From NCBI GenBank assembly GCA_032718475.1, contig JAUCBJ010006798.1:1972-65971 (forward strand): a DNA stretch of 64,000 nucleotides. Reading direction: 5' to 3'. Of the stretch, positions 9,299 through 64,000 are shown in pieces; positions within the stretch are counted from its first letter, which is position 1; each line of letters starts with the position of its first letter. The stretch is from Nemertoderma westbladi (lineage: Eukaryota; Animalia; Xenacoelomorpha). The translations under genes were made by a program, and so were the position numbers. A model generated the notes under the pieces. It was not told the origin of the DNA, did no database searches, and saw only the letters and a program-made list of their open reading frames with translations.

Positions 9299-11850
9299 AA
9301 CTTACCAAATGCAGGTAAGAGTATTCGGAGCCAGGGACAGCCCCAACTGCACCATGTACGCATTAAAGCAGACCGCATTAGACAGACGAGACCAATTTGA
9401 CCCAGAAGTAGTTCGGACCGTGGAACGAGATTTCTACGTGGATGACGGCCTCAAGAGTTGTGACACCTTGGAGCGCGCTACAACCGTAGCACACCAACTC
9501 CAGGATTGTCTCGCTAAGGGCGGATTTCACCTGACGAAGTTCGCTTCCAACGAACCCGAACTGGTGAACTCATTTGACCCGACGGATCGCAGTGGAGGTG
9601 ACCTAGACTTAGACCTAGAACCTCTGCCGACGACCAAAGTATTAGGACTTAGTTGGGACCCTAACACCGACAATTTTAGGGTACGTGTAAGGTCCAACGA
9701 CCAGACTAGGCCTCTCACTAAGAGGACTTTTCTCACTAAGAGAAAAGTTAGCTGAGCGATGGAGGGACTGGGAAGCCCAACTGACGTTCCTACAAGACTA
9801 TACCATACCGAGGGTATACTTTCCTTTGCAAACCACCTTTCCTGCCGATTTAGAGCTTCACAGCTTTAGTGACGCTAGCAAGGATGGATTGGGGGTTACT
9901 TTATACCTTAGACGACAAGTGACATCGGACAGCTACGAAGTGTCTCTCGTTACTTCAAGGGCTAGAACAATGCCATTGAAGTATATGACCGTACCTCGTG
10001 GGGAGCTGCAAGCCGGAACGATATCCACCGATATTGTCAGTCTAGTTCAACGCGAGCTGGAAGCTAACTTGAAGGTCACGTATTGGACGGATGCGACGTT
10101 GGTACTTTGGTACATAAACTACGAAGCGTTTGAGTTCAAGACTTTCGTAGCCAACAGACGGGCTGAAATACTAGACCGGTCGCTCAAACAAGATTGGCGT
10201 CACTGTCCAGGGAAGCTGAACCCAGCTGACATCGCGTCACGGGGGATGCAACCGCTTGACTTTTGTAAATCAATAAATCCTTTTGGTTTAGAGGACCCGA
10301 TTTCCTACAACGACCATCAGACGAATGGCCACCGTTATTCGACGCGACAACCAACACCATACCAGAGGGTGCCGAGATAAAAATCGACAAGGTTGTCAAG
10401 TCTAAAGCGAAAGCCAACGCCAAGGTCAAGAGGAAAAAGAGACGGACGAAATCTGATGACCTGGACGCCAGACCTGACATTATGCCAGACGTCTCACCAG
10501 ACATTCGACCAGACGCTTGTACGAATCCGTCGCCGGATGTTCCGCAGGAGATTTCACCAGATGTTTCGCCAGATTGTTCACCAGATTACTCGCCAGACTA
10601 TTCACCAGAAGAGACACCAGATTGTTCTCCGGATTGTTCGCCAGATTGTTTGATGGAACTCACGACAGAATGTCTACCGGACATCTCACCAGACTTTCCA
10701 CCAGACATCTCGACAGACTGTCCACCAGACTTTAGACCAGATTTTGAACCAGACTTTCTGACGGAAGTTACGCTAGACAGACTTTGGGACCGACGACAAG
10801 ACATTTTGCTGGAAGTTCCACGCTATGTCTCACCAGACGTCTCACCAGACTGTTCACCAGACGCTTCACCAGACTGTCTACTAGACACTCCATTAGAAGA
10901 CCCATTGGAGCGGACCTTTAGAGACTTACCGAATTTGACTTCTTTGGACGACAAAGGTGTGGCCACAGCGATTACACTCCGCTCGAAGAAGGTACTTGAC
11001 TTACCACCTACAGGTAAGCGTGTGACTAAGGTTAGGAAGCTTACAGGCTCACAGGAACACACTGACACTGTAGAGTTGAAACCGTTACTGCCAGTCGACA
11101 CATTAGGTGCGGATGGTAAAGGTAAGACCGTAGAGATTGACGTACTTGGGGACTCAGACAAACCTACTGGAAGGCCCGTGGGCCTACCAAGTCCAGACAA
11201 GTATCCACACTACGACTACACCTTACCCGATGACGTCACTAACACTTACGTTGACAGGATAGTGAACCTAACTAGATCATGGACTGACGCGTGCCGCAAG
11301 TTAGCATGGCTCAAACGATTGAGACAATATGCCAGAGGCAAACGCGACTTTCCTAGAAGACTTACCTTAAAGGAAATTGGCCAATGTGAAGTTGATATCA
11401 TTAGACATTATCAATTGCGATATTTCGCACGAGAGTTCACAGCAAGGTAAAGGTAAACAGATTAAGTCTTCACCGATTTTGAGTTGGAGTCCGATTATTT
11501 ACCGGGGCTTACTTTGTCACAAGTCCAGACTCCAAAACATCGACTTTGCACTTGACTTTAGGTATCCTATCATCAAACCGCAACACCATGAATTACAGCG
11601 CGCTATGATACTGGACGCACATGTACAACTCAAACACGTGGGTAGACACCACTGTCTATCACACTTACGCTCGAGGTTTGTACTGATTAGACCTAGTAAG
11701 GCACTGAGTTCGGTAACACGGAACTGTATTATTTGTAAGAAGGTGCACGCGAGGATAGGACACCAAGAAATGAGTGAACTACCACTAGCAAGATTACAGG
11801 CGTTTAGACCCCCTTTCACTGAGACAGGGATAGACTGTTTTGGACCCATA
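9299..11850 (+). pseudogene. Element B pol: RT end, RNase H, linker, IN zinc domain (frameshifted, small deletion)
   Basis: FGARDSP, FYVDD, FSDAS, PRGELQA, YWTDA, NPADIASRG, H..H..CIICKK, GIDCFGPI spread over several frames. Confidence 0.9.
10470..10880 (+). repeat. Coding 12-bp tandem repeat (SPDx)n in the RNase H-IN linker of B
   Basis: Repeated TCACCAGAY/TCGCCAGAY units; translation SPDC/SPDY/SPDV. Confidence 0.85.
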
Positions 11851-13032
11851 CCTAAAGAGTTGAGGTCTCTATAGGGGTGTGGGTAACAGGCGGCGGCGGA
11901 CTCGTGAGGGTCTGGGGGCACGTTAAATCCAAATATAGTGCTAGGGAGTCACTGAAGGCCCTCGTGTCTAACGAACCATGAATTGCCATGGTGCCGTGGT
12001 TCCGTCTAGTCGGCATGTTGCCGTACTGCCAGTCCTGTACACAGTAGGGGTGGTGGCATGGCGTGATTTGTGGTTCATGTGGCGTGAACTATGTTTTGTA
12101 TGTGAGCAACCAGTGGCAGTTGGCTTTGGGGCTTGGATGGTTCCATTGGCCATCAGCTGTTCCGTTTTTTTGATACTATATGTTATTGTCTCCATGTTCA
12201 GCTGATTGGTCTTTGGAGTGTGTTGAACTTCTGGGTCTCTGAGTCTCTGTTGCTGTAGGTACGTGAGTACACGTGATTGTATGTGTGGCCACTGCGAGTG
12301 AGTATGGGAACCCTTGCCAGTTGGACCAGACGCCGCTGGTATTAGTAGGACCATATCTCTACTGCGCCCCAGCATACTTTGTGCACACAAAGATATTTTG
12401 CCCTGATGGCAAAATAAGGTACTCTCGACTCTTTATGAGTTGATACAATTTTGTCCCCTCTGATTTGACCCCGATTTTGTCTTACCCGATTTTGTCTTCT
12501 GTGTGTACGTGGTATGTGTTCGATTTTGTGCTTACCGTTGTGTACTTGATTTCGTGAACATCTGTTGAGTACACGTGTACAGTGACTGGTAAGTGGTTAC
12601 TTGTTCAGTAGCTTTTGAGCTACAGACAGTATTGTCTTTTCAATACTGCCGGCGAGGCAGGTGAAAACGAGTCAAAATTCCATGTTGGGTAGCGCAAGCC
12701 CACATGGGACAAGACCATCGGTTAGGCCCAAGGGCGACCTTGGTGCTCGATCGCTATCGACTGGTCCACCTGCCGGTTGACTCTTTGTTATACTTTTGAG
12801 TTGGCTCAATGTACAGTCAGGCCACAGTAAGTTGACAGTAGCCGCCCATCTGGCTACACGTTCGACGAGCTGTGCCGGTGTGATCGGGGGACCGAAAACA
12901 GAACCCGGGAAGCATCGGGCCACCCTCCGGCCCGGTCTGATAATAACATCAGTCGGACTGGCCCCAGGGGTGGTGGAAACACGTCCGCCTCGTGGGTGCG
13001 CCTCGGGGAGGAGCCCAGAAGGACGAAAGCGA
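11851..13032. other. 1.18-kb insertion of unknown type in the integrase of B
   Basis: Interrupts IN just after GIDCFGPI; no clear TSD, TIR or tail; 12968-13031 is the exact reverse complement of 63937-64000. Confidence 0.8.
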
Positions 13033-13901
13033 ATCGCGAAACGCGGAAGGGTACAGGTAAAACGTTGGGGATTGATCTTCACTTGCATGGCCAGCAGAGC
13101 TGTCCATATAGAGCGAGTGACAGACTTGACCACCAATGCCTTTATCCTAGCCTTACGGCGATTTATCGCTAGACGTGGATTGGTCAAATCCATATACTGC
13201 GACCAAGGGACAAACTTTGTGGGTGCACGGAACGAAATAACCAGAGCTTTGAGAAAGTTGGACCAAAACCAGATTTCCGAGGAACTACGTCCTCACCGTA
13301 TTGTTTGGAATTTCAACACTCCAGACAGTCCGTGGAGAGGTGGCGTTTGGGAAAGGCTGATTGGCTAAATTAAGACAGCTATGGCTAAAGTCGTACCGAC
13401 GCAACACATCTTGACAGACGACCAACTGACGACGTTACTTATAGAAATCGAAGCAATCTTAAATACAAGACCGATCGCTTTGATCCCAGACAATAACGAC
13501 GTACAGTTCGCCTTGACACCAGCGCACCTGCTTATGCAGGCGCCGAAGACATTGTTGCCCATTTCGGTACCCGTTGATAGTGACGGATACAGCAACAAGG
13601 CTTGGAAAATCACTCAATTGCTTGCAAATAAATTCTGGGAAATATGGCAGAAATATTATTTGCCCTCTATTTCGACCAGAACCTCTTGGTATCTAAATAC
13701 CCGATGTTTAAGACGTGGTGACCATGTTTTATTGGCTGAAGAAAATCTGAAAAGACGGTTTTGGCTGACTGGAGTCATTTTGACCACGCACCCTACATCT
13801 GGTGTAGTGAGGACAGTTACTGTAAGGACTATCGACGGACGTACCGTAGATAGGCCTGTACAACGTCTCGTGCTCCTTGAGGAGACTAGAAACGAGACAG
13901 G
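13033..13901 (+). pseudogene. Element B integrase core and C-terminus (internal stop)
   Basis: KRWGLIFTCMASRAVHIE, CDQGTNF, GGVWERLIG*, RPVQRLVLLEE; last codons resume after C at 24658-24691. Confidence 0.9.
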
Positions 13902-15117
13902 TGTTCGCGCTTTCAGACCTTTGGCAGTTTAACCCGCCAAATTAAGATGTCTTCTAGATATTAAATCGCTTTTTAGCCTATGACAAGTATTTGATTCACT
14001 ACACTAGTCGAAACCAATCCGTGCGCGACCATTCACCCGCTGGATATTCCCGGGAGATTGGGTTCGACGGTTTAATTTTGTTGCTATGTAAGCCTAATGT
14101 ATTATTCGACTGACAGTATTATATAATCTCTGACAATATTATTTACCTTCGGGAATATTAACAGTTCCTTTAGGACGTGGCGCTTTATCTACATAAACAG
14201 AGTTATGACTTAAACTACTCACAACGATATGGCTTAATTATAATTCACATATATGGCGCATTCTTTAGGAATGCTTCTTTAACAGACTCACTCATACACA
14301 ATGCTGCACAATACTGCACACTAATCTGCCGATCTTCACTGATTTTAGTCACATATAAAAGAAACACAGACTGACTCATGTAGGGTCTATCAAATAACAT
14401 TAGATTCACTTCAAACCACCTTAACATAAGTCACAATCGTTTATCTGTAACCCTTCTCTCTTACCTTCGGTATATCAAGAATATTGGGTTTCGGGGTTAT
14501 TTATCGTTATTCCAAATATAATAATTCATCAACCATGTTATGAAGAACTGACAGTAAATAGCAGTATAACAATATAAAAGTATGCACAGTATTACACAGT
14601 ATGCAGTGTATGCAGTACTGCAGTATGCAGTGATTACGAAATTGCAGAGTGTTTGTTTCGTCAGTTAAAGGATATATGTCCTTGTAATTAAACCTACTAG
14701 TGTTGAGCTAAAAAGCAGAAAGCACAAAACACTAAAAAGCCGTTCTTTCGTGGCTTTGAAAAACTCGTGACTACTGCTCTATACGAGGATACCAACTCCC
14801 TTATTCCACGAAGCTCCCGTTCAACACAGAGAAAGAGCAGTGAGATAGGAAATTTTCAGTTCAGTACTCTGTGATTGGTCAAAATCAAGGCTAACTCAAA
14901 ATTCTATTGGGAGATACAAAAACAAGGCTATGACGCAACCTCCCTAGGCTTGTTGGCCGATTAAACAGAGCCCAGATGCCTGCGTACAGCAAATCAGCCA
15001 ATAAGCTGGTAACTTGCACTATTTTTAGCTGTAGATCACTTTGAGAGTATTCTTAGCGACTGGGGGGGAACTGGCCAACAAGGCAAACGAATCAGTTATC
15101 CCACAAAAGCTTTTACA
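13902..15117 (-). repeat. 3' LTR of C
   Basis: Near-identical to 23437-24652 (one mismatch seen by eye, ~14670 vs ~24205); adjacent PPT. Confidence 0.96.
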
Positions 15118-18067
15118 CCGCTCCCAGAAAATGGGATTTAAGTCTATAAAATATACAAAATCACAGTTTCTAAAATATAAAAATACTCTAAACAGTTAGT
15201 CTATCTTGCGCGGACGGCGTTTACGCAGTTTCTTAAGGCTAGCAAGAGTCCTTTTCTCTTTGGGGGAAGCCACTTTACTAGGAGGGCCATAACTCCTGGG
15301 TGAAGGGTGCAATATGATTGCATTAAAAGGTTTGGGTTTACGGTCGGTGTCTCGTCCATTTCGATATGCTTCTCCTCGAGCTGATTTTCCTCCGCTTGTC
15401 ATGGGATACGTTCGTCCAAAACTCTCGCAGAGAATAGGGTTTTCTAAGCTTGATATCTTCTTTGAGATTCGAGGTTTCCCAATCGAACTGAGATAAGGCC
15501 AATTCGTTTATCGATTGGACTTAATGTTATAACTTACGTTTATCTGAACAAACGCAGGTTTCTTTGTTGATCTTTATAGAATAGCGTTTAACTCGTGTCG
15601 TACAACGCTCTCCTTCACTTTGATGAAGGGTTGTATCGCGTTAAACGGGACGACCATACGGTTGGATAATGATATTAGGTGTCTGCGTCATAATCCAGCT
15701 AGGTAAGATGGGCGGCTAGCTAGAAATCACTGTCGGAGTGTTACCGATTAATTGTTAGGGTAGCACTAGATCTTGAACAGTGAATACCGTCCGCGAGGAT
15801 CCGCGACACCACCAGGATCGCAGGTCTGAGGTCCAACTAAGGAATGAGGAGGTTTGACCGAGTATTCCGGGACTCTGATCGTAGGTTTACTCTAGGATCG
15901 TTAGAGCCGAGTGAGCATAGGTGATACGTCAAACAAGTTTCGCTCGAAACTCCAGTAAATATAACGAACACAACTGTGTTTAACACGACGTTTCCGTGGA
16001 TGTTTATGTCTTTCCGTTTATTGGCTGGGTCTAGGACATTTATCGTAATAATACCAAAGACGCACGTCTGGTAGGGGAAACACGGGTGATATTTATTTGT
16101 TGTTACAACGCTTCTATCAAGAATTCCAAATATACGTTGGAGTTACCGCGTCCATTTGTTTCTTTAGTGTCTTTTCTTTCGAGTCGATTTCGAATAGAAT
16201 TTTCGCATTCGAATTTCAGTTTATGGTTCCGACTCCGCTGGGCAGGATATATAGTCGACATAGTCCGTATTGTGTAAATCGATAGGATGACCAGTAGTTA
16301 AGAAGACCACATACGTACCATTACGCTGCGTATAAGCTATCAACAAACGCTTGCAAAAGTAGAGTATATCGCTCCCCGATACCAAGAACATCTGCTATCA
16401 ACTCCATCATGTCTGCTATATATGAGTTTATCCACATTATAAGGAGTTTATATTCAGGCTAGCGAGCGTCGCTGCCTACTCCAATTAACCCCCGGACAGT
16501 ACGAGATCCTCAGCGCCGATGTGTCGTCGCCGCTGTACTTTCGCCAACGACGTAGCCGCACAACGACAACGACAACCGGCACAAGTCACTCGACTGTCCG
16601 TCCCAAAGGCTTAGATGTACTTCAGGTTTTCCTTGGAGAGTTAGGTTACTTTTACGATTGCGACTAGCTACTGTAAACACACCTTAGTAGTAACATTCGC
16701 CTATAAACTCACAAGTACCACACACACAACTTGTCACAAATTACACACACTCGGGTCACTTGTCCGTTAGTCAATGCCTTCCAGAATGTCACTATATTAT
16801 TATGTATCCTTGGATACTATCAGTGCACTATTTATTCCCTATGCTATTCAATGGGACAAGCTTTCTATTGTTCTTTTAACTCAATTCTAATTCTAGCGTG
16901 GTTGTTGCTATGGTGACATTATGCAAAGCTAGCGGTAGAATTAGAGCAATTCCAATGCATACAGATCTGGGATGTTATTTAATAGTATTCTTTAATAGTC
17001 AATGTTCTGTTTTATACATGACTTTATGAATTTTATCGGCTATTGACTATGTTTGGGAGACTTTCGCACACTCATACACATAATAAGATAAATCTCCGCT
17101 CCCTTGATCTATTAATTAATGGAATTTTGGGAATGTTATAAATTGCGTAAAAATGGCAATTTATTAAATTCATTAAAAGGCATGAATTTAAATTTATTCC
17201 CTGAAATTTTATTATTTGATAATTAAATTGACATATTTTGATTCTAGAATATGTCTGGGGACACAAGATCCTTAATTCTATGACAATTGTCTTTTTAAGA
17301 ATATCGGTAAATGCTACGATATCTTAATTGACTAGAATTGCTGAAGGATCTGAATTTTACAGATTTTGATTTATTAGATTTGCAAATATTAAATAATTAA
17401 TATTTGAGATGGGCACCGATTTATTCCAGAACTTGTCTGGGGACGTTAACCACTGATTCTAGAATTTGTCTTTCAAGTATATCGGTGGGTGCCGCGATAT
17501 CTTAATCGACTAGAATTACAGATGGTCAAAGGGTTTAACAGATTTATTTTGCGTTATACGCTACTGTTAAAGGGACATCACGCTACTATATGTATTATTT
17601 AATATACGGTATGAGAGCAATATCGCACGAAGCAATGTCAGTGTGAAGAGGCAAGTCGTTTCCAAGGTCTACCCAGAGCTTGGTTTAGCCGAGACACGAG
17701 GATCTGAACTTTGCATTCCTAATACTCTGCCTACCAATAATACTTGAATATAGTAGTGGCTTTATTGTACTTTAATAAGTACGGACATTTCATCTTACTG
17801 TAGTTACGTATTTGTAATGTAATACGGACAGTAAGGAAGAAGGAAAAGAATTATTTCTTGCCGTCGCATTAAATATAATATATACGTAATTAAGTAATAA
17901 ACGCGAATATATATTGCACTAATCTACTAAATAATCGCTAAAATAACATTCTACTGAATAAAATTAAAGAAAACGATTATAATAAAATTACATAGTAATA
18001 CATACATAAATATAAAAATAATAAAATAATATAAAATAATAGAGTCACACACCCACTCCATATGTTG

Positions 18068-21000
18068 TTACGTTATGGAGTCCCTAGATGTTTGAAGGAT
18101 TAGGGAGGTGGTCGTGGGAAGAGAATCTTGCCTTCCACAGTTTCCGGAGAGTCCTCCATTCCCTTCCGATAAACACAAACGACCGACTGGGTGATTGAGT
18201 CGCTGCATCCTGAATACAATTCCAGGTTTCCTCTTCGTCCTGGAATAGTGACGATAGAAACATCGCTCAAAGTATATGACGGCGTCACAAAGCCGATTCC
18301 AGGAGCTATAGTGGTCCGTCGCTCTCTGCAGGAGAGGTGAGAGTCCCTGCGAGACGTCTGATGTTCCAGAGCTCCAATCGCTCTCTCTGATCTTCATGAA
18401 GGATCCACTCGCGGAGGGGAGGCCCAGATCCACGGCGTCGTCCCTGGCAACATGTAATACCGACAGATCTATCCCGGGTTCAAATAACTCCGATCCACCC
18501 GTCCGGGTTTCAGGTTCGACTTTCTCCGCTCCCTTGGCTGGTCTAATCTCAGTCGGAGTAAGATGGGGAGGCCATTCATTCTCCTTACTCAGGAAGTCGG
18601 GTTCACCTAACCGGTCTATAGTATCTGTCAGTTCTTGAGGAGTTGCTCCTCTGGAAGCGATGTCCGTTGGATTAAACTTCTTGGGGCAATATCTCCATTG
18701 ATCTACATTGGAGCTAAGATTGTCATTATCTGAGGAGTGTGGTGTTCCCTCAGTTGGGTCGTCTCCCTCACTAGTATCATCTTCCCATTCACTCACCTGG
18801 CAGACGCGATCTTGAAGCAGTCTTTCCCTGAGCGTTCTACCGGAAGGTCCAGTAAGGTACCAACCTACTCTAGTTCTTACCGCATAGGTCTGTAGTGGCT
18901 GCGGTTGAGCAGGCCGTTTCTCTAATGTCTCCAGCGCCTCATGCGCGTTTTGGCCGATGAGTATTTGCACTCCAGGATAATCAGTCTGGAATCGAGGTAT
19001 GTTAAGATGTTGGATGCTCTCATCCTCGTCCCAATTATAAAGGTCTGCTTGAGTAGTAGCGAAGTTCTTTATAGCCACCATTTTCACTGACCTTATACTG
19101 TATTCTCCTAGTTTATCCTGTGGAGTGGACAACTCACCTATATAATAGTCGGCAGCTACAGTAGAATTCCAAACCTGCATGATCCCTGACATGTTTAGCT
19201 TGGTTCGGAACTTGGGTTGTCCAGCAAAGATGACTTCGGCTAGTTCCCTATCGATGAATGTTCCTGTGCTACCGGAGTCCAGGAGGGCGTTCACTATATA
19301 GCTCTTCTGAGGTCCGTGGACCCGTAACTGGACTACAGGAAATTCTCGGATTCCTATATTGGAAGTTGGCGCTTTCCAAGATGGTTGTTGATCGGAAGTA
19401 GTTAAGGTAAGGTCGCTGTCTGTGTCTTTCTCATACACGAGTGCTCGATACACTGCGGTGGTGTTTATTAGGTAACAGGATTCGTTTTGGTCGGAGAACT
19501 CGTCCGTATAGAATCCTTCCATCTCAGATTGATCAGTGTCGTTCACATCACTGAATTGGACATGTAGTTCGGACTCACTTACCTGACTCGGGCTGTTTTG
19601 TTCGAATTCCGTGTGCAACAAGATATGATGTTTTGCGCCGCACTTTGCACACCTTGCGTCGGAGTTACAGGTTCGCCGTTGGTGTCCTCGTCTGAGGCAA
19701 TTATAACACAACCGCTTATCCCACATGACTTCACGTCTATCCTCGAGTGATTTCCTCAGGAATTTATCACACGCATTTAAACGGTGGGGCCCGTCGCACA
19801 GCACACATTTCGGCTTGATGTTACTTACTTTAACCTGTGCTATGTGGTGCACACTTGTTCTTTCCTCGGGCTTTCTCACCTGAATTCCTTTAGGAGACGT
19901 AGGAGGGGTTTTTTGTACCGGTTCCCTTCTGTCATTGGGTCGAGACTTGGATTTACTTACCTGTTCTTTAGGCATTTTATTGACATAATAAGGCCTGTCA
20001 GTGTCTTTCCCGCTGTCCTCTCCTTGAGAGGTTTGGCTTTCACCGTCGTCGGTATAACATACTGGTGTTACCCTTCTCCTAGAAACGGGTTTCTCACTTA
20101 CCTTGTTTTCCAATGTCTTCTCTCTGGACTGCCTTAGGAGCTGTAATTTCACTTCTCTATCTAAGAATGACATGAGATCAGTCATGGTAGGGTCTCGTCG
20201 TTGTTGTTCCATCATATATAACACCTTCTTATCCCAGCGTGTACCTACTCCACCCTTGGGCAAAGCAGATGCTAAGGCTCTTACAACCATAGAATTCTGG
20301 TATTCATGAGACTTACCTAGCCAATCTAATTGTCTACAGATCTCCTGAATCTCATCGGAAAACTCTATAATCCCGCTGCTAAGAAACTTTCGGGGCGCCA
20401 TTAATTTTGCATACAAATACCCAGCTATGTCATTCCTATTACCATACCTGATGTTTAGTGTATCCCAAACTTGTCTTAATCCATCTGGATGTCCAATAAA
20501 TTTTAACGCCATTGACTTGGGAGGTCCTTCCAAACATTCGATGAGGAATCTAAGTTTCTCTCCGTTAGATAGTACAGAGGTGAATTATATTTTAATTTGT
20601 TTTGTGAACTACTGTTTATTTAAATATTGTCTGTAAATTGTGTGCGGTCATTCTGGAACAAAATATAAGAGCCCTTACAGGCTCACATCAATCAATCAAA
20701 ACAGAGTTCTGTATGTTATCTTTGTAATATTCATTAAAAGGTAACCATTTCATCTCATCTCCATTGAACTTGACAATCTCTCCAACCTTTACCGCTTGCC
20801 GGGCTTCGGTTCTAGCCATTTGACGCGTAAAACTTTCTTGGGCCATCGTGCTATTTAATATCGAGTTATCGGTATATAAATTTCTCGGATTATGATCAGT
20901 TCTATAGGGAATATCATTATCAACAGGTCTATAATTACCCTTAATAGGGTTCACTATAGGAGTTTCTACTTCGCTAGCAGTATAAATGCGTGTAGGCTCC

Positions 21001-51548: not shown

Positions 51549-54500
51549 CTAATTTTTGATTGAGGCAGGAGACAAATTATAATCTCCCGTCTCGTTGCGT
51601 GTCTCCTCTAATAACACGATATCTTGGACCGGTCGGTCCAAGGTGTGTAAACCATTAGTTTTACACTTCTTTGGGTGCGGACACTTGCACCTAATTTTCA
51701 CAGTAACTGTGCGCACTATGTTTTGCACGTCTGGGTGTATATGCAAGATGACTCCTGTTTCCCAATATTTTCTCTTGACAATCGGTTCGGTTATCAATAT
51801 GTAGTCTCCTCTTTGGAGGCTCCGAACCGTTTTGTACCACTTTGATCTGGTGGATATGGTGGGAAGATAGTATTCCCGCCAATATTCCCAGAATGTGTAC
51901 GCGACTAATTGTGTTACTTTCCAGCTTTTACGACTATATAGGTCAGCACTAATGGGTTCTGATGCCGGCACAAGAAATGCTGGACTCTGCATTAGCAAAT
52001 GATTCGGCGTTAATGCAACACCGTCTGGCAACATAGCTATCGGCCTCGAGTTTAGTGTATGCTCGATTTCGATGAAAGCTGTGACCAGCTCGTCGTCAGT
52101 AAGTTGTTTGTTTACAGGCAAGGTTTTAGCAATGGCCTGCTTTATGGAACGAACCAAACGCTCCCAACTTCCTCCTCTCCAAGGACTTTCTGGAGTGTTG
52201 AATCTCCATTTTACTCTTTGCGGCAAAAGTGCTGCAGAAATTTCTCTATTCTGCGCTGCTTTGTGAGCCGCGTTTAACTCGCTATTCCCCCCGACAAAGT
52301 TTGTACCCTTATCAGAGTAGAACGCCTTTACTAGTCCTCTCCTGGCCATAAATCTCTTTAAGGCCAGGAGCAGAGATTTGGTCGACATGTCTGCCACATG
52401 CTCGATATGTATGGCTCTACTAGCCATGCATGTCAGTAGCAGGCCCCATCGCTTGTGGGTCAGCCGTCCTACTACTAGGATCGGCATGCTGCATTGCAGC
52501 TGCATTTTTAAGAATGCTGTGCCGGCTTGTCAACAAAATTGCACCGCCACAACTCCCTATCACCCATGACATTTGCTAGATCATCCGCATCTTTAAGGCC
52601 AGTGTCCTTTAAGATGCGTCTCAAGAAAGTCATGGGCTGTCCACCATGCTTATTCACTCCATGAGGCTGCCAAAGTACAAGATTATGCACTGGCTGGTCC
52701 TCACGGCGAAAGCAATGTCCTGCAAAGCGGAGGCGATTTTGTTCTAGTGTCAAGCTTGGGGGAACCAATGAGACACCTCCAATGTTATATAGTGTCTGGT
52801 TGGAGATGTGTGCATTGTACTTGACACAATGTACCCGGCGTAGCATTCTTGTGAATGTGCCATCCAGAGATTTGGTGTCCTCAGCAGTTAGAGCCCAGCA
52901 TGGACTCCCGTAGAGGAGTACTGGAACTACTGCTGCTCTAAATAATCGGACCTTAAGTTTCCGATTAATTCTCGGTGACTTCCAAATCCTGGAAAGCCTA
53001 TTCAAGGCTGCCCATGCCTTTCCCTTATGTATTCGAAGGTCCTCACCTGACTTCCTCAGCCGTCCACTCTTTGCCTCAATCGGACCAAAACAATCCACCC
53101 CTGTATTTGTAAAAGGTGGGTTATATGCCTGCACTCTCGCTTCCGGGAGTTCAGCCATCTCCTGTTCCAATACTCTGGCGTTCACCCTCTTGCAAACCAG
53201 ACAGGCGTCGTACATGGTGCCTACTGCCCTGCTTGGCTGCAATAGAATGAATCGCTGTCTCGCTGCCGACAAACAGTGTAACTTTCCCGCAAACAGTGCA
53301 ACCTCTTGTGTATATCCCATAGAATCGCTCTTTGCAATTCTATTGGGTGACTAGGGATTATCACTGGGAACCTAAACTGTGAGTTTAGGTCGACAGTCTG
53401 GATTCTCGATCTATGACAAATCAAACCCTTATGGATTAATGGACTCCATTTTCTAAGGGGTTTATAGAGAACTGGTCGTTGAGCCGATAATAGATAGAAT
53501 TTCTTTGGGAAGGCACACATTTGATAATGTTTCAAATGCTTTAATTCCGCTTGATCAATCTCATCCTCTGTCAGAGGTTGTTTCAATTTCTGAATTCGCT
53601 CACTATTGACGCTCATTTGTTCTCCCAAATGTTTCGAATGTTTTATACAAAGGTACGAAATGTATCGGCTTAACCACGCAGTTCTTTTACAAATTGTCAG
53701 CCAAGAGGCAGACGAATTTAGTAATTTGTCATAAATACTACATGGCTCTAATGCCAGCGATGGTTGCCCGCTAACTAATGGAAGTTTCGAATCCAAACCC
53801 GCAGGTTTGAAAACCAAAGGCTCCATTGTGTCGGTCATTTTCTGTCCGTCACTTACCAACTGTGACTCTGGTTTAGTCTGTAAGGGTGGTTTTATGTCAT
53901 AACTTACCCTTCCGGACCTAGTCGTCACGTAAGTCTGTAGGTCTGACAGGTCTCCGGGCCGCTCCAATGACTCTTCAGGCTGCTCCAATGACTCTTCAGG
54001 CCGCTCCAATGACTTGAGTTTGGCTTTAGACTTTGACTTAGAGACTTTCTCCACCTTGACTTCTGCATCGTCTGGCATCGGATTGGTCACTATCTTCAGT
54101 CGCTCTGGCCAATGTTCCTGTGTCCTCGTTAGAAAATCAGGTCTATGCAACCAAAACTCCTGGGACTCTTCCTGACAGAATTCCGCCGGCATTGCACCTC
54201 TCGAAGTTATGTCGGCCGGGTTTAACACTCCCGGACAATGTCTCCATTGTTCCTTCATCGAAAAGTCGACGATCTGAGCGCATCTGTTGGCCACAAATGT
54301 CTTTAGTGCAATATTGTCGGCCGCGATATATACTAACACTAAGGATGCGTCCGTCCAATAGAATAAGGTCAATGTCGTGTCTAACTCCTCTGTTATCTGC
54401 TTACTTACCTCAACTGAAACTACTGTCGCCTGTAACTCTGCACGAGGGACAGTCATGTATTTGACCGGCATTGTCTTTGATCTAGAAGTCACAAAAGCCG

Positions 54501-57500
54501 TCTCAAACTTGTCCTGACTTACCTCTCGGCAAAGGTAGGCTACCATACCAAAGCCGGTGTCACTTGCGTCACTAAATAAGTGCAGCTCGAGATCCGCTGG
54601 AAATACCAGCTGATTCGGAAAGTAGGAACGGGGTACATCTATGTTTTACAATAGATGCAACTCGGCTTCCCACTCTCTCCACTGCTTTGCATGTATAGGA
54701 GATATTGGTTCATCTCACCCTAAGTCGGACAACCAAATTTTCCTCATGCACGCTCGTGCCTGTAATATTACCGGACTGATAAAGTTCATCGGGTCAAATA
54801 GTCTACTTAACATCGATAAGCAAATTCTCTTTGTCAAAACTTTGTCTGGACTACTGGGCTCAAATCTAACTCTTACCTGGAACTTGTCCATGTTCGGGTT
54901 CCAAGTGAGTCCCAGTACTCGCGCCATGGGGATGGGTTCTACCCCCAATTCTATGTCTCCGCTCCCGCGATCTTTCACCGGGAATGACTCTAATAGGGCC
55001 TCCGAATTAGTGGTGAACTTGGTTAGAGGAAAACCCCCTGTAGCCAAGCACTCTTGCAGGCCGTGAGCCACTTCTATGGCTTGTTCCGCTGTGTCCTTGG
55101 ACACCAATCCGTCGTCCATGTAGAAGTTTCTCAATATAGACTCGATAACCTCTACTGGGTACTTACCAATCTGGGCTGTTGTCGTTTTCTTTAGAACAAA
55201 CAGCGTGCCATTTGGACTATCGCGGGCGCCAAATATCCTAACGTACATTTGGTATATAACCACTGGGCCGGATAAGTCTTCATTCTCAAACCAGAGAAAT
55301 CGAAGGCTATCCTGGTCTGCCTTACAGGCTCTTACCTGGTGGAACATCGCCTCGATTTCACAAGTAAATGCGAATCGCCGCTGTCTAAAACGTAACAGTA
55401 TACCTATCAAATAATTATTCAGGTTGGGTCTGTCCATCAACTCTGAATTCAGGGACATGCCTCTATAGACTGCTGCGCAGTCATTGACTACTCGGACTTT
55501 GTCAGGGTGAGTCACATAGTGGTGTGGGAGGTAATAAGTCTGGTCTGTCACTAAGTCAGGGTCCTCTACCTTCCCAGCAAATCCCTTGGCGAAATAGTTG
55601 TTGATCTGGGCGCAATACTTCTCCCTAATGTCCGGATCCTTTAACAACCGAGCCCTTACTCCGTTCAATCTTTTCAAGGCTAAGCTGTAGTTGTTCTCCA
55701 ACTTAGGAGGTTGTCGACGCCACAACATTCCAACTTCAAAATGTCCAGTCGGTAGCAGACGTATGGTATCTTCCATCATCTCCAGCAACCGTTTCTCATC
55801 AGCAGACATGGTTAGGTCATATCCACCGGGTTCCATTGCGTCCCTATCCAGCCATTCGACGGTTCTGGCTCCTGTCTCGAGGTCCTGACGTATCAATTCC
55901 TTCTGCAATTCCTCCTCACTGTATTGGAAAATGTCAAGGTCTCGATATTTAGCCACCTGACCCTCCACTATGTCGGTATAAGTCAAAACGTTACTCAGAT
56001 AAGTAGCGTGGGCCGCTGAACCAGACCCACGGGTCTGATAACAGTAGTCCTCGGGTTCACTATCTGTCCGGTCATTGTGGAGTGGTTCCGACAACCTAAC
56101 ATTATCGGGAATCAACTCCTTGTCCGACTCGCTAACGTCACTATAATGGTCAATACAGGTTCTCCTAAACTCGTCTATGTCTGGTGGTTCTACTAACGGT
56201 GGTTCAGTTATAGGCTGTAATCCGTCGTATCTATCTATTGGCTTGTCACCACCTGTAAACTCGTAGGACATGGGTACTCTTGTATACCAACCTAATATAG
56301 TCCTATGGGCATGTGGTTCACATGTGTCCGCATGTGGTTACATGCGGTTCAGCTGGTCTCGTTTCCCATATCTGGTGTGCGATCAGCTGTTCTGCACCAA
56401 TCAACATAGAAACATTCCTATAACCTACCTGGTGTCTGGATACTCTGAGCTTGTCAAAATACTCCTGTGCTATGGGACTCATCGGCGGCACCTTACCTAA
56501 CTGCCTGCCGAACCCCTTCCTAGCTAGACACTTAAATCCGTCCAATGGCAAAGCTCTCCGTTCTTGTCGAGTATGTTGGTCTCTCGGAAGTAGGGAGTCT
56601 AGTTCTACCGAAATTCTGTGTCCCTTGAGGTCCCCTACCCCGTGCATAGACTTTAACTCTAATTAGATTTCCTCGGCGTCTTGGAAGCTAGAAACGGCTC
56701 TCGCCACTTCCTCGTCGATATAAGATAATGTCTACGCAGTGTCCAACATCACATATATTCGCTTTGATCCCTTATCGCCAGTAAGTTTCACCGGAATAAC
56801 TCTAAATATTTCCGACGTGGCCAATGATAAATACGTCCACGCACTGGTCGATGAACTATCCGCGGTAAAACCTTGGCAGGTCACTTCTCTCGCGCTCGAC
56901 TCACCATCCTCGTCCAACGAACCTGGTTGATAACCATCGTCCTGAATGCCGGTGTACGTATTTCTATACGATATTTTATCTATTTCGATACGGGTTCTTT
57001 GCTCCCCTTCCTTTGAGGATTTTGCTGTAAGTAACAATCCGTTGGAGTGTGGAAATCCGCATGTAGCAACTTGTGATGTAGTCTGCCGCATTCCATGCAT
57101 CCGTCCTTGCTGTTTGGGCACTGCCGCCGTACATGACCTGGCGCAAGACATGCCCAACAGGTGTCCAACGTCCGTACTTGAACTCTTCTCTGTTCCGAAT
57201 TTAATTCTTTGAACCGTCTGCAACTATCTAACTTATGGTCGTCAGATCTTACCTCCTTTAGTAAGCAGAATTGGCAACCTACAAATCCATCCGGCAACTC
57301 CTGTTGCTTTAACCTAGGTCTATCTAATCGCTCACCTGACCATACTCGCGAGTCTGATCTAAAGGCTGTGGTACTCGAATTATATCTGTCTACTGAGTTA
57401 AATGTCACAGTGGTCCTGTCATCGTCAAAACTTACCATAGACTTACCGGTAACAGGTTTAGACTCTCTCATATTCTCCTCTGAGAAATTTGATTTCATCT

Positions 57501-60440
57501 CTGCTACTACTGCGTCTGTGGCTATCATGTCATGAATGTGCTGAAGTGTCAACACCTTACCTTGACCCTCCAACTTATTCTCTAATTTGCACCATTTTTG
57601 TCTGTAACGCATGTTTAAACGTCTTATTACGCTCTTCAAAACTTCGGCATGATCACCATGGTGAGGTAGATTCACCGTCCTCAAGATGTCCAATGCGTTC
57701 GAAATAGCGTTCGCTGAGTTCAACAGCTCTAACGGAGTTGTAATCCTTCCACCCTTACCCAAGTCTTCCACTATCGACTGTGCCATCTTGGTTTTATTCC
57801 CGTAGATGTTGCTAAGCGTCTTCATTGCCAACTCAAACGCTCTTTCATTGCCGACGAAGTTGTCAGCAATGGCTCTAGGTTCTCGATGGAGCATTTGAAG
57901 CAAATAGTTGAACTTCTCATTGGGAGTAAAGGTTCTGTTGGTCAGCTGTTCGTCGACATAGGTTTTGAAAGTCCTCCAATGCTTATGGTTGCCCATAAAC
58001 TTCTGGGGTTGTTGCGTCGTTCCGGGTTAACAAATGGTTTAGTTCTGCAGGATTATTAAGTCTGGTCCTTTCCCGGGGATTAAAACTTACCTGCTCCGCG
58101 TCCGTCCTTCTTTCCTTATAGTTTCGGGACTTCTGACGTCTCATTTCTTCCTCTTCATCGCTTGAGTCAGTATCAGTTATCAGCCCTCGCGTTGGTTTGC
58201 GCGCCGAAGCCCTGACCCAAGCCTCCTGTATAAACTTCTCTGCCGAATTTTCGAAATTTGGATTATGGATAATCGGGACAGGCGTCCTTACCTGAGGTCT
58301 ATGTGGTATAGTTGCCTCCGATATACGTACTCGTTGACTAGGTTGGACTTTATCTAACTCAGGCTTGCTAGGATTGGAATTACTTCTTACCTGGGCTGCT
58401 TCCTTTAACTGCAGGTTGCTAAGCATGTCCGTTATAGGTTGGATGTGCGGCGATATAGCTTGCGCTAAACTAGCACGTAACTCATCCCTCGTAATAAATT
58501 CCTGGCTAGGGTTCTGTTGTATAGTCGGCTCTATCTGAGTAATCCGCTGTCTCTCATATGATCCCTCTTCCGGTTTAACCCGGAAGTTCTCCGTCGAACT
58601 GGGTCGGCGCTCCGTCTGCGTATTCCAAACCCGCGGGTTCGGTTCGCCCAATACTCGTCCTGTCGGAGTTTCTCCCCTAAATTCTTCGTTCTCGCATTCG
58701 GTATGTAGTGGTGCGGTGTTCCGATGACGTGGATCCTGCGCGATGGGTGAAGCACTAATACCAACTGGTGTGCGATATGTAGAGAACGGTTTAGCGATCC
58801 GTGTACTCGTAATAGCTGGACCGGGTATAGGAATTATGGTCGTCGTCGACTCGCGTATGGTCGGAGTTCTCGCTTCCTGTTCGGCCTTCTGGAGTGCGAA
58901 CAGTTCTCGCAACTCGGTACCTACACTCGCCCCACATTCTTCGATCATTCGCATCCCCTTCTCGGCGATTTCATTCGCCTTCCTAGTCCGTTCTTCGCTC
59001 TCTAGATTTAATCTCGCACTTTCTAACTGCGCCAGTTTACGTTCTTCTTCTTCCCTTGCTCGTCTCGCTGCGCTCTCTTCTTCCACACATGCCTTCTCTT
59101 CATACAACGCCTGTCGCTCCTTCTCGATCTCGCGTTCGCGTTCTTTATGCTCGTGTTCGAGTTGAAGTTCGTATTCCTTTTGTTCGCGTTCCTTGCGCTC
59201 ACGCTCGACTTGAAGTTCGCGTTCCTTGCACTCGCGCTCGAGTTGAAGTTCGCATTCCTTGCGCTCGCGTTCCGCTCGTTCACGCTTACCTTTATCCTCC
59301 AACTCTCGCAACTTCGCGTCTAACTTACGTGTGAGCTCCCGTTCCCGCTCGGCTTCCTTCCGTGCTTCCGATGCACGCAAAACTTCCGCCTCTTGTTCGT
59401 CCAGTCGGCGTCTTCTCTCCTCTGCCGAGTTGTGAGAAACAAGGGATCTAGCACATATAACCTTACCGCGCGCGTGACTAACCTGGGAATCGCCACTGTC
59501 TCTAGATGCGTCGTCGGGTGGAGTCAACGTTCTCTGTTGGATGTTCTCCGTAGTCGGTAGCACCTGGCCCGGTACCACCACTCCACTCTGCATCAACCAG
59601 CCGGTAACTTCCCGTTGATACCTGCACTCCTCTTTATCTTACGTTTCTTCCCGCTCCACTAAGTTTCTTGACTCTGCGTCACTCACCTGAGTCGCCTGCG
59701 CTTGTGATGCCCATAGCAGCCAGTTCTCCGTCCTAACTCGTCGAAATCGCTCCGATAACGTGCGATACTCCAACAAGGCTGCTAAAACCCTGTCGTAAAT
59801 CCTCATCGCCACGTCGCTCGACTGAGACTCCACTGCTCTCTTTGCCAGGACTGCAAGCTCCTCTGTCTGCTTGAATAACGCTGAGTTGTATCCTCTTCTA
59901 ATCTCTTAAACCTCTCCTAAACCCTTCCCTTCCGATGTTCGCTGAGTCGGCTAGCATCTTCCTTACCTTGTCCGCCGTCCGGGTTATATGTCCGTCATGA
60001 GCGCGAAGTTTCTTCTTTATCGCGATGTCAAGTTCTCTCTCGCTTACCTGACTTACACTTGGTGGACTTGAAGGATTATTCCAGGAACTACGGGTACTCC
60101 TTACAGCCGCTGGGACCACGGCACTTACCATACCCACAGGTCTGGAAACCAGGCTCCGGGCTCTCACTTCTGCTACACTTCCCTCCCTATCACTCACCTC
60201 TGGTCGGGCTGTTGTACAATCCTTCCTTACAGTAGTGGTAGGGGATTCTAATACTATTACTTCTACTTGCTCTTCCTCACTAGTTACTGTCTCGTCCTCC
60301 TGTTCACTTACGTCAGCGTCGCTCGCTGCGTCGTCATAGTCGGCATTATCGTCAACAGTAATATTATCGCTATCGTCAGTCGGCGGTCCAGCCGCCGTCT
60401 CATAGCTGTCCTCTAGTGCCTCCTTCTCTGAGACACTCAT
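51549..60440 (-). pseudogene. Element E gag-pol (multiple stops and frameshifts)
   Basis: E/R coiled coil, gag core, CQFC..H/CWACLAPGH/CMECGRLHH, protease VMLDTA*, RT CEIEAMFHQV and FYMDD, RNase H PRAELQA/YWTDA, IN GVDCFG/SDKGTNF/GGSWERL. Confidence 0.92.
52470..53055 (-). mobile_element. 586-bp 5'-truncated RTE-like element in the integrase of E
   Basis: 10-bp TSD TCAGCCGTCC (52460-52469, 53056-53065); KVRLFRAAVVPVLLYGSPCW..RLRFAGHCFR; TAGTAGTA tail. Confidence 0.92.
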
Positions 60441-60890: not shown

Positions 60891-63153
60891 TGATAAACAA
60901 CCGCGACCTCTATACTAACAGCAGAACTGTTGAACAGACCAATACCCGTTAATATCCTTCTGCCAACCTAATAAGTTCTCGTCTAACCAATAAGACACAA
61001 AGACTGCTCTACTGTTAAGTAAAGGGGATCAGGAGCGTGCTATTACTAAATTGTAAGGGTTGCTAAATACAAAACCGCTACTTACCGTTAGATGGCGCTA
61101 ATCTGCCGTCCACTAATATATTTTACTAATTTTACACTACTCCTGCAAAATCGCTTGTTCCTTTCTCTACCGATCGCTCGATAGAGAGCTAACTGTTCGA
61201 ATCTATGAGCCACGCGGGAATAACCAAAACAATAAACCCGAGTCGGCTCCCTAAGCTTACTTAAGACGAGTGCGAGAGGCCTTGCACTCAGAGTATTCTT
61301 ACGCCTAATTTTATCACTATTAAAGCACGCTATTACCTACGTCTTTCTAATCGCGAATACTGGAGGTTCCCTAACGTAATGTGTGAATGCGAGAATATTT
61401 AAAATATCAAAATGGTACAGTATCTGTTTCTACGTGGATAATACCACTCCGGGTCTAAAACTGCCCGCGACTGGCTTTAGGCCAGCAAAATTACTAGCGT
61501 ATCGTGCGTACCGAATAGTGCGTTCTAGCTGATTGTCCGCTAATGCAAATAACCGCTCAGCGTGAATAGTTTACAGTACACTAATTATTACCTTAGCTAC
61601 TCTCTGCTATGCTGCGTACTAATTCTTAATTTTTTACTAATTAATTACAGTCACAAATATTTAACAGCGTACTAATTACTAAGAGTTCCAGAATACGTAA
61701 TTCTAATTTATCACGCAACAGGTTTCGCTAGTAATAGCCTAATTTGCCGTATTACTTTGACCTAATCAATAACTAATTATTGTAACTAAGAAATAGAAAT
61801 CAATCAAAGGAAAAGAGCGCCTATCTAAGCATTCGTAATCTTAGGCACACTTCAATAACACACCAATCAGCGTTAGAAATCACAGTTTACAATTGTGCAA
61901 TTCACTACTCGTACTCCACACTCAACGTTATAATACGCGCAGGCCTCTCCCGGGTACATCTAGGATTCCTAACTAACCCAATTCCTGCCCCCTAATACTA
62001 AATAGAGACAAAACCTGGATCATCAGCCCCCTAATTTGCTGTACCGGCGATCGGTCTGCGTGCCGCAGTGCAAGTTACCCGCCCGCAACGGTGACCCTAG
62101 CCAGCGTTGCCCGCTTTGAATCCTCCGCTCTCTCCTAGTCGCCCAACCCCCCGATGCGCCCACCGCCCACTGGCACCTTAGCCCTCCATTACGCTAATAG
62201 CTACCGTAGCGGCGCATGCAAATCACAAAGTCTGACAGTTTCAGGAATCCCTTGGGATTATTGCGCAGAAAAGAATCACATAGAACCATCAATCAAAGGT
62301 AGAAATCATAGTTCGATTGTAATTTGCAGTAATCGAAGGAATTATTGAGAAACACAAGCAAAGTAATCGCACTAGCAAATCATTCCAAGAAATTAATCAA
62401 AATTAGCAAATTGCAGAAAAATACAAAATTAGAGACAGCTCAGCAAGTAAATTGTAACAGGGGTGTATCATGTGACAGATTGATGATAGGCTCTACCGGC
62501 ACACCGCCAATTTATAGGTGATCCGGATGGGATGATGCAATAGGGTGACTCAATCGCTTTCTTATTGGCTCTCCAGTCCGTGCTAGCACTAGACCAACCT
62601 GGAAGCAGCTAGTCCAATAAGGAGGCCGGATTGTAGCCCTATTTGCTCCCTTTCCTCGAATTATTACCATATATGGTAATGGTTCACGTCTCTGGCTGCT
62701 GAATGGCCAGGACGGCGTCCCTATATGCTAGCCCTACTAAAGCTAATATCAGCAAGCACGGAATCCAGGGTCCGAATAAACTTACCCTGGAACTATCTAC
62801 ATATAACCTAATACAAAATTACGTAGGTAGAGCTACATACTATACAAAATGAATGGATGCAAAATATATGGGCGTTTTAACTTCCTTACCTAAATACCAC
62901 TGCGTTATTATGCCTTATCTAAAATATCATGCTGCACAACGGACTAATATTACATACAGTATAACGGACTAATATTGCATACTGCATAATGGACTAATAT
63001 TGCATACTGCATAATGGACTAATATTGCATACTGCATAATGGACTAATATTGCATACTGCATAATGGACTAATATTGCATACTGCATAATGGACTAATAT
63101 TGCATACTGCATGATGGACTAATACTGTGGATACAGCGCCATATACCGTAACA
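60891..63153 (-). repeat. LTR shared by F (as 3' LTR) and E (as 5' LTR)
   Basis: Homologous to 45133-47311; preceded on the minus strand by PPT and 3' UTR, followed by E's leader and gag. Confidence 0.82.
62928..63125. repeat. 25-bp tandem repeat (~8 copies) in U3 of the LTR
   Basis: (ACTGCATAATGGACTAATATTGCAT)n; only ~2 copies in the other LTR (47241-47286). Confidence 0.88.
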
Positions 63154-64000
63154 CCGCTCCAAGGGAAATCATATAATGTTTCCCTCCAATTGTAGAAGAG
63201 TATAAGGTGATGTATACAAAACAAATAAATTTCTTCCAACCAATCTAAATAACATAATAATTCTACTATTTACAAATATTGCCATAGATATTGCATAATG
63301 AATTACATACAAATTAAATTCACAAAATATTATCTCTCTCACTGTTTAACGATTATTACATACAAATTAAATTTACAAAATATTGTTTCTCGTTCATTCT
63401 TACTACATAATGATTACTACATACAAAATCAAATATAAATTTTGCTAGGGCAAGTGAAAGGAGTAAGCCAAACCCGCAGGTTTGTCTCCCCAATCACTTC
63501 CTTCGCCTCTTTCATAATATAAATTCAAATAACTCAACTAGTGTATATGAGTCTAGTCGAAGATTTTCAAATGCTACAATATACATCAGAGCGACGATGA
63601 TGTATATATCTAGAGTCTGTCGCCCTGTGCCATAATGTATTATCGACCCGCTCCTGGGTTCTTTGGGCTCGCTCCTCTCTTTCGCCCCCTTCCCAGATAC
63701 ACTAATCTACCTCTAGTTGACTCCGTTGACGGCGTCCGTGAGGCGTCACTCCCCGGAACCGACGACGACGTTCCCTGAGCCCCGACAGATTCTCGGCTCG
63801 AACTTCTCCCTCGGCCTCGTCCCAATTGTCGCGCTCCCGTGGTCGCTTCCGCCAACTCTTCCTTATGCAGTTGCACTCGCGCTTTTTCAGACGCCCCCTG
63901 CGCCTTGCGCTGCAACCTTTGCGCTTCTATAATAGACGCTTTCGTCCTTCTGGGCTCCTCCCCGAGGCGCACCCACGAGGCGGACGTGTTTCCACCACCC
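63154..64000 (-). mobile_element. 3' end of sibling element F: RG-rich ORF tail (63640->64000), 3' UTR, PPT
   Basis: 63154-63417 matches 47312-47573; ORF ends with GRGRGR..GRGRKRG like B's ORF3 tail; family palindrome at 63469-63484. Confidence 0.75.

Follow-up and report, generated by a model that had tools for sequence, protein, structure and literature searches.

The stretch of DNA considered here, 64,000 nucleotides (nt) of the xenacoelomorph Nemertoderma westbladi (contig JAUCBJ010006798.1; below, the window, to which all site counts, family comparisons and internal controls are confined), is animal DNA with fibrinogen C and laminin G domains that is packed with BEL/Pao long terminal repeat (LTR) retrotransposons. 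Two of these elements, B and E, carry an additional gene, ORF3, after the integrase, and along both of them a short hairpin-like motif recurs, in one version in B and in another in E and in F, a fragment of a close relative of E. Element B lies on the forward strand, from the end of its reverse transcriptase (RT) gene at 9258 to about 31180; its pol remnant (9258..13901) holds the RT end, RNase H and integrase, lacks the 5' part, contains a foreign insertion at about 11860-13031 and is split by another element, C, beyond which the integrase resumes at 24653. Element E lies on the reverse strand, between gag (60440) and about 45218; its gag-pol part (51549..60440) encodes a gag with CCHC knuckles, RT, RNase H and integrase, with several frame breaks and a LINE-like (long interspersed nuclear element) insertion near 52600-53050. 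Fragment F (60983..63936, reverse strand) is a 3' end, comprising an ORF3 tail, the 3' non-coding region and an LTR-like part, and is about 80% identical to 45218-47573.

B and E are BEL/Pao (Belpaoviridae) LTR retrotransposons. Their domain order (gag, then RT, RNase H and integrase) fits this group, and Pao-type Pfam domains are found in both, with DUF1759, Peptidase_A17 and DUF5641 in E, and Peptidase_A17 and DUF5641 in B, where gag is absent. A search with the integrase gave 239 matches at an E-value of 1e-20 or less; the listed ones have PF05380 and/or PF18701, and the best are 33-44% identical. When LTR pairs and target-site duplications were checked, E was found to be flanked by LTR-like copies about 80% identical to each other, and the 5' end of B to be missing. 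In a quickly built tree of B, E, element A and 45 of 120 listed database relatives, the integrases of B and E, which are 58% identical, form one clade with an SH-aLRT support of 100 and a stem of 1.35; as judged from these sequences, the two lineages are sisters. The copy number of the B family is high, with 8306, 3969 and 257 contigs matched in three public DNA runs; no RNA run among the public runs was listed as carrying its sequence, and none of 94 candidate relatives of the E integrase in metagenome contigs was confirmed.

On the sense strand, each site of the motif is a stem of 6-8 base pairs (bp) closing a tetraloop of the form YGYG, where Y is a pyrimidine. There are 15 such sites, namely the 13 listed by a first-pass annotation, every one of which was found at its reported coordinates and with its reported sequence, and two further ones at 57341 and 60129. 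Six lie in B, all on the forward strand. The first (11169..11188), in the RNase H-integrase linker, has the loop CGUG and a closing pair C-G where the other B sites have U-A; the second (25435..25454, loop UGCG) is non-coding, about 370 nt 5' of the ORF3 ATG. Two are within ORF3, one after SLYRxYK, where it is read as GRLASLP (26585..26604, CGCG, in a codon column shared with the E site at 49983), and one after DRPSM, read as WKAREPT (28131..28150, CGCG). The last two are in the 3' non-coding region, in a first unit (29576..29595, UGCG) and a second (29712..29731, UGCG), the number of units differing among copies in public runs. Eight sites lie in E, all on the reverse strand. From the gag end these are 60129..60144, near the 5' end of gag (UGUG, one G.A mismatch); 58626..58641 in gag (CGCG, one G.U stem pair); 57341..57356 in gag (CGCG, closing pair U-A, one G.A mismatch); 56022..56037, 5' of RT (CGUG, one stem pair changed on both sides to G-C from A-U); 53794..53809 in the RNase H-integrase linker (UGCG); 51106..51121, non-coding, about 350 nt 5' of the ORF3 ATG (UGUG, with a predicted long lower stem, z -4.3); 49983..49998 in ORF3 after SLYRxYK, read as TKPAGLE (CGCG, again with a predicted long lower stem, z -3.4); and 48390..48405 in ORF3 after DRPSM (CGCG). 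They span 11.7 kb at spacings of 1503, 1285, 1319, 2228, 2688, 1123 and 1593 nt. The single site of F (63469..63484, reverse strand, UGCG) is non-coding and lies 3' of the Arg-rich end of ORF3.

The motif is enriched in each family and is in one orientation throughout the window. Seven E/F copies were recovered de novo as a repeat family (D12) by a repeat search of the window, a result that is not circular. By a strict rule (at least five Watson-Crick pairs and a YGYG loop) there are six hairpins in B against a shuffle mean of 0.12, and six in E/F against a mean of 0.20 (in each case a maximum of 2 in 200 shuffles); degenerate patterns gave 12 matches in B (six sites, counted on both strands), where shuffles averaged 0.00, and 15 in E/F (eight sites), where they averaged 0.55, all of these counts being partly circular, as the patterns and the YGYG rule were derived from the sites themselves. 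In a scan with a matrix built from the seven listed E/F sites, 60129 (22.4 bits) and 57341 (16.8 bits) rank directly after those seven, the next unrelated match scoring 15.2; the 57341 site has a predicted hairpin probability of 0.62-0.79 on the sense strand and at most 0.01 on the antisense strand. Neither the degenerate pattern nor the matrix found a site in the E leader or LTR-like parts, and no Rfam family matched the window at gathering score. Identity among sites over the 20-nt core is 0.92 in B and 0.79 in E/F, compared with 0.28-0.32 in the flanks; the homogenized tract is sharply limited to 16-20 nt. Together with the sister relationship of B and E, these figures bear out the earlier proposal of a concertedly evolving family identity tag at the level of nucleic acid.

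The internal controls are the three other BEL elements of the window: A (1..6854, forward strand), a gag-pol without ORF3; C (13902..24652, reverse strand), inserted in the end of the B integrase; and D (about 42450-43870), a gag fragment. None of the three holds a strict YGYG-loop hairpin. Sites thus co-occur with ORF3, being present in both ORF3 families and in none of the three other elements. Two E-like half matches in the 3' region of C (16061, reverse strand, score 15.2; 15819, reverse strand, score 9.5) form no in-register hairpin and were left uncounted.

The motif had been described as a family of CGCG-centred palindromes. Self-complementarity holds, but the centre is CGCG in only six of the 15 loops, which rules this out as the rule, the others being UGCG (5), CGUG (2) and UGUG (2); what the sites have in common is YGYG on the sense strand, with the guanines at loop positions 2 and 4 invariant in all 15. 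At the 13 listed sites 90.4% of 104 stem cells pair, compared with 21-56% in slid registers, and two-sided, pair-keeping changes occur at five of the eight stem pairs, although this test is biased upward, the structure having been read from the sequences and short palindromes pairing by construction. The stem differences between the two families are two-sided changes that keep the pair. More weight can be given to the two-sided changes within families, found at 11169, 56022 and 57341, to the three different pair types at stem position 8 of E, and to the non-Watson-Crick oppositions on the sense strand, which over 14 sites include four G.U and no A.C. An A.A mismatch is kept in the B stem at six of six sites. 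Intermediate states also exist, in that the B site at 11169 has the closing pair of E, the E site at 57341 has that of B, and the gag-side sites of E have B's G at stem position 4; these suggest a stepwise drift between the two stem types.

Folding predictions point in the same direction. In a 200-nt context the sense-strand hairpin is predicted with a probability of at least 0.83 at all 13 listed sites, and on the antisense strand the probability is below 0.5 at five of the 13. Of seven E/F sites, five have z-scores of -2.2 to -4.3 for the folded segment as a whole; when the flanks alone are shuffled around an unchanged core, z stays below -2 on the sense strand at two sites only. Changes among the 15 loops comprise 11 C>T and no G>A (p 0.001 if changes are symmetric and independent, p 0.03 with about six independent events, some of them being probably common by descent), and the two classes are about equal among public B copies (69:72, 74:75 and 126:116 in the three runs). 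None of the 40 listed differences (out of 785) among B copies falls in five motif sites, which is uninformative, as about 0.6 would be expected. On these models, an RNA hairpin is the likely form of the sites.

Ten of the 15 sites lie in coding linkers and use all three codon phases, which supports the earlier statement that copies are read in different frames and that the constraint is on nucleic acid. It had also been stated that B and E carry their sites at the same positions. This is so for the intervals in which the sites lie, and exactly so after SLYRxYK, where GRLASLP and TKPAGLE fall in the same alignment columns and the site is therefore inherited; the other sites are mostly shifted. 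Those of the RNase H-integrase linker are offset by about four codons; those after DRPSM are separated by 6-7 codons within a linker of 53-55 residues that is poorly conserved; those before ORF3, about 135 and 90 nt upstream of a donor-like AAAAGGTGAGT common to B and E, are offset by about 45 nt; and a weak alignment pairs the second 3' site of B with that of F. The loop phase is the same in all three paired coding sites. Just 5' of the B linker site, at 11155-11168, CAAACC equals the left arm of the E motif and stands in codons aligned to the E site, as a relic or by chance. The only tandem-like sites are the two 3' units of B, and in public contigs motif-bearing units have been lost or gained at 29550-29734, and in one of them an arm of the motif is retained between flanks that have diverged. 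Two public runs also contain contigs that skip from 26376 to 29432, which would be a deleted derivative of B without most of ORF3 and two of the hairpins; it would keep the pre-ORF3 and 3' sites.

ORF3 follows the integrase in both families, and four to five of the sites lie in the ORF3 unit. The B copy (25817..29562, forward strand) contains a DEDDy-exonuclease-like region at about 27200-27830, three CCHC-like knuckles at about 28415-28600 and an Arg-rich tail; its reading frame is interrupted twice, by an in-frame stop (27752-27754) and by a frame break (near 28440-28480). The E copy (47595..50766, reverse strand) is 37-42% identical to it over the longer pieces, has several frame breaks and has lost its 3' end, so both copies in the window are broken. 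Three CCHC-like knuckles are nevertheless found in ORF3 of both families, the Pfam match to zf-CCHC (E-value 0.003) being below the cut-off. An Exo I-like FYDNEG and an Exo II-like xDL are kept in B and E, and YYLAIE / YYLVLE are taken, by eye against the family pattern, to be an Exo III-like YxxxE. Comparison of an ORF3 profile with an RNase D alignment, in which 38 of 120 listed matches were added to the E. coli domain (39 sequences), gave an hhalign E-value of 0.0019 and a probability of 14.5% over 50 columns around Exo II; with the PolA exonuclease there was no alignment. Relatives of ORF3 were sought widely: there were none among 4716 longer candidates, none at an E-value of 0.001 or less among 1.84 billion representatives and none usable in the Atlas, none of 595 and 44 pattern matches in metagenome and viral contigs was confirmed, and tblastn against plasmids gave E-values of 2 and 6 only. 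ORF3 is thus an orphan with a putative, weakly supported DEDDy-exonuclease-like domain, an assignment that is plausible because DEDDy ORF3s occur in bdelloid LTR and Athena elements. Upstream of it, B and E have in common a splice-donor-like AAAAG/GTGAGT (25572-25582, forward strand; 51028-51018, reverse strand) and acceptor-like ends near 25774 and 50826, followed by ACGTAACG and the ATG, which suggests that ORF3 could be expressed from a spliced mRNA.

Several other features of the locus may be recorded. The LTRs of element C (1216 bp) are 99.9% identical, with one base different, and are accompanied by a 5-bp ACAGG duplication; its pol is largely deleted, and about 2.9 kb of unexplained 3' sequence ends in a short basic reading frame. 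C is a recently moved, non-autonomous BEL element. Its leader repeats short palindromes at 21388-21762, ATACCGGTAT in four copies and ATAGGCCTAT/GTAGGCCTAC in three, and ATACCGGTAT is also found at 60664, in the E leader, and at 41910. A 64-bp piece is identical at 12968-13031 and 63937-64000, in opposite orientation, at the edges of insertions in the B integrase and the F ORF3 tail. The RNase H-integrase linker of B has at 10460-10910 a coding repeat of 12/24 bp, with SPDx-like units, that is absent from E; a 21-bp repeat lies in E at 53957-54014. Finally, a CpG-poor satellite of 43 copies of a 63-bp unit occupies 34495-37235, flanked by a fibrinogen-C exon at 32975-33667 and a laminin-G-like one at 37655-38461.

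What has to be explained, then, is that the sites exist, how they are spaced and how they pair, and that within the window they are confined to the two ORF3 elements, together with a fold on the sense RNA that is predicted and likely. The identity of the stem throughout a family, including the A.A mismatch of B, needs a partner that reads sequence, mutual pairing, or copying between sites. The best reading, which is put forward tentatively, is that the sites, which recur every 1-2.7 kb along the internal region, may be co-evolving, family-specific RNA hairpin tags that are bound by the element's own ORF3 and serve in selecting its own RNA. The tandem CCHC knuckles of ORF3 would grip the invariant loop guanines at positions 2 and 4, and another part, probably the exonuclease-like domain, would read the family-specific stem. 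Protein and stems would drift together by pair-keeping steps, leaving the sites of one family alike. ORF3 would in this way coat its own RNA from end to end, as an escort or a shield (in export, in transport to the assembly site or in protection from host RNA surveillance), and a regulation of its own mRNA, in which four to five of the sites would lie, is also possible. Among possible readers ORF3 is favoured because it co-occurs with the sites, because its unit holds four to five of them, and because the exonuclease-homology domain of Egalitarian (Egl) reads stem-loops. Egl binds RNA stem-loops, including the ILS of the I-factor, via that domain (excerpts of PMC13186709). The two knuckles of the human immunodeficiency virus type 1 (HIV-1) nucleocapsid protein (NC) bind G7 and G9 of a G6-G7-A8-G9 tetraloop, and replacement of that tetraloop changed packaging little (excerpts of PMC7599994), so the parallel with NC is structural only.

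A number of observations weigh against this reading, either as to the hairpin or as to its reader. The newly added site at 60129 has a predicted hairpin probability of only 0.15 in 60 nt and 0.00 in 200 nt, and the pairing test carries the upward bias noted above. The sense-minus-antisense folding energy averages -1.2 kcal/mol against a background standard deviation of 4.2, and around the B sites the flanks add no structure (z -0.7 to +1.3). The background for the C>T excess in the loops is mixed: beside the near parity in public B copies, CpG differences between the E and F 3' copies comprise 22 TG and 9 CA, against which the loop bias has p of about 0.02, or about 0.13 with some six independent events. 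The co-occurrence of sites with ORF3 cannot be separated from common descent, because B and E are sisters; C and D, moreover, are incomplete. Gag too has CCHC knuckles. As for the exonuclease-like fold, ORF3 has no Pfam hit, its hhalign probability is only 14.5%, sequence searches of the PDB were empty, an RNase D profile run over 667 six-frame segments did not rank it, and two AlphaFold models were of low confidence (predicted local distance difference test, pLDDT, 30.6 and 35.2), Foldseek returning noise with the second.

The main alternative, possible if on balance doubtful, is that the hairpins are dispersed packaging or dimerization signals, whose loops would be bound by the knuckles of Gag and/or whose copies would pair with each other, first by kissing and then as an extended duplex, so that RNAs of the same family are packaged together. 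Selection for mutual pairing would suffice to make the sites similar; with G.U pairs allowed, YGYG loops remain self-complementary; and in E the sites cover the whole internal region, 1.1-2.7 kb apart. The folds and duplex energies place a self-complementary sequence in a predicted hairpin at the sites, as in the dimerization initiation site (DIS), PAL and Psi signals. Pseudopalindromic hairpins that form extended duplexes are known from the HIV-1 DIS and from DIS-1/2 of Moloney murine leukaemia virus (MoMuLV) (excerpts of PMC7599994), and PAL6 of Ty3 lies in a short gag hairpin (excerpts of PMC11381356). The predicted energy of the 20-nt core duplex, -30.7 kcal/mol within families and -12.9 between them, would suit this account, but such a contrast follows from any palindrome. 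Known signals, moreover, are one or few and near the 5' end (excerpts of PMC7599994 and PMC11381356), whereas none is found here in the E leader or LTR-like parts; the ORF3 unit holds four to five sites, and its mRNA, which is probably spliced, ought not to enter the particles; the A.A mismatch at six of six B sites is not favoured by pairing alone; and A, C and D encode Gag and yet have no sites.

The first-pass annotation had likened the motifs to the targets of VANC proteins in the VANDAL elements of Arabidopsis, and in that case the sites would be double-stranded DNA targets of an anti-silencing ORF3 protein, with the TpG variants being tolerated products of deamination at methylated CpG. 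A family-specific motif in one orientation, a CpG-rich core, an extra element gene and the turnover (gain as well as loss) of the 3' units in B are all in keeping with such a system (excerpts of PMC5735166), and the C>T bias may be partly background. A symmetric DNA site should, however, accept G>A as readily as C>T, and the counts are 0 and 11. CCHC knuckles, furthermore, bind single strands. An RNA hairpin is favoured over a DNA site of this kind because of the coding location, the pair-keeping double changes, which imply pairing within a strand, and the G.U-compatible changes on the sense strand; a dimeric DNA-binding protein, in particular, would not need the two-sided changes at 11169, 56022 and 57341. 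With ten of the 15 sites dispersed as single copies in coding linkers and not in non-coding tandem arrays, the analogy is not favoured at the molecular level, and a DNA-level role seems improbable.

An equally improbable account dispenses with a co-evolving element protein and invokes a host RNA-binding protein that needs a stem and a YGYG loop, for example in RNA stability, export or germline localization, the family-specific stem being a by-product of copying between sites at reverse transcription. The loop and the hairpin shape are indeed common to both families, the homogenized tract (16-20 nt) has the sharp limits to be expected of short conversion tracts, template jumps occur at the 3' units of B in public contigs, and host Egl is used by retrotransposons through stem-loops (excerpts of PMC13186709). 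Template switches between short repeats that are kilobases apart should nevertheless mostly give deletions, the flanks have not been homogenized (identity 0.28-0.32), and the gag-side sites of E form a sub-variant of their own with intermediate states, which resembles stepwise selection. Other origins are rejected, a protein-level motif by the three codon phases and the different residues, a tandem-repeat origin by the fact that no listed array covers any site, and an insertion footprint by the lack of common flanks and the inherited positions.

The sites are therefore a real and unusual feature, a variant of the cis-acting RNA signals of retroelements with ORF3 as the candidate reader. Little is understood of the way in which an LTR retrotransposon distinguishes its RNA from the RNA of relatives in the same genome, and the signals known so far are few and lie at the 5' end; the layout seen here, by contrast, is that of one hairpin repeated over the internal region, with a loop common to the lineage and a stem specific to the family, and with an orphan gene next to it. 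The B and E stems provide a natural pair of swapped specificities with which the reader, be it ORF3, Gag, RNA or a host protein, might be found, and the case poses the question of how dispersed, non-tandem sites inside coding sequence can change in concert. A wider proposal, possible but rather unlikely, is that of self-recognition at the RNA level in animal retrotransposons, in which a protein encoded by the element, with a nuclease fold and zinc knuckles, would read a hairpin password that is repeated throughout the element and whose loop is fixed in the lineage and whose stem is rewritten in each family. If this were so, each family would escort or protect only its own RNA, to the exclusion of relatives and parasites, and the arrangement would be the RNA counterpart, in LTR elements, of VANC and VANDAL.

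Among known systems, the bdelloid Vesta and Juno elements, presumably Ty3-like and not BEL/Pao, are nearest with respect to ORF3. Together with the Athena elements they have an extra DEDDy ORF3 3' of pol, and the main text of the study that describes them contains neither 'palindrom' nor 'CCHC' (PMC5408684). The DEDDy reading of ORF3, if true, would extend such genes from rotifer elements to BEL/Pao and would supply a candidate target. In the titles and abstract openings of the literature matches listed there was no DEDDy ORF3 in BEL/Pao and no dispersed family-specific hairpin in an LTR retrotransposon, although Repbase reports could note such an ORF3, and the excerpts of PMC8556966 and PMC12440569 contain neither 'exonuclease' nor 'palindrom'. 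With respect to the loop there is a likeness to the YNMG tetraloop, which 11 of the 15 loops (CGCG and UGCG) fit. An example is the stem-loop of the enterovirus oriL, which is reportedly bound by 3C. In YNMG, however, position 2 is free, whereas a G is fixed here, and the remaining four loops (CGUG and UGUG), with U at position 3, fall outside it, so YNMG is ruled out as the loop rule.

Egl resembles the proposed system in that an exonuclease-homology domain acts on stem-loops, with a signal in coding sequence and an irregular pair at a fixed distance from the loop; it differs in being a host protein that carries LOTUS-like domains and binds stems of varied kinds (excerpts of PMC13186709), whereas ORF3 is encoded by the element and has CCHC knuckles and, putatively, an exonuclease-like fold and RNA binding. 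With the HIV-1 DIS and Psi hairpins, DIS-1/2 and SL-C/D of MoMuLV and PAL6 of Ty3 the sites share the character of self-complementary hairpins of LTR elements (excerpts of PMC7599994 and PMC11381356), and with the retroviral tetraloop the guanines at positions 2 and 4 that are bound by CCHC knuckles (excerpts of PMC7599994). The retroviral and Ty signals, however, are one to a few distinct ones at the 5' end (excerpts of PMC7599994 and PMC11381356), whereas here copies of a single motif, at least six in the B remnant and eight in E, are spread through gag, pol, ORF3 and the 3' region and change together from one family to the other. The VANC system of the Arabidopsis Mutator-type VANDAL transposons offers the likeness of a repeated family-specific motif in one orientation, an extra gene, proposed co-evolution and gain and loss of units, but there the protein binds double-stranded DNA at non-palindromic motifs, which lie in tandem repeats outside the coding sequence of a DNA transposon of plants (excerpts of PMC5735166); here, hairpin-like motifs, whose loop is conserved and whose stem covaries, stand mostly singly and mostly in the coding linkers of an animal LTR retrotransposon.

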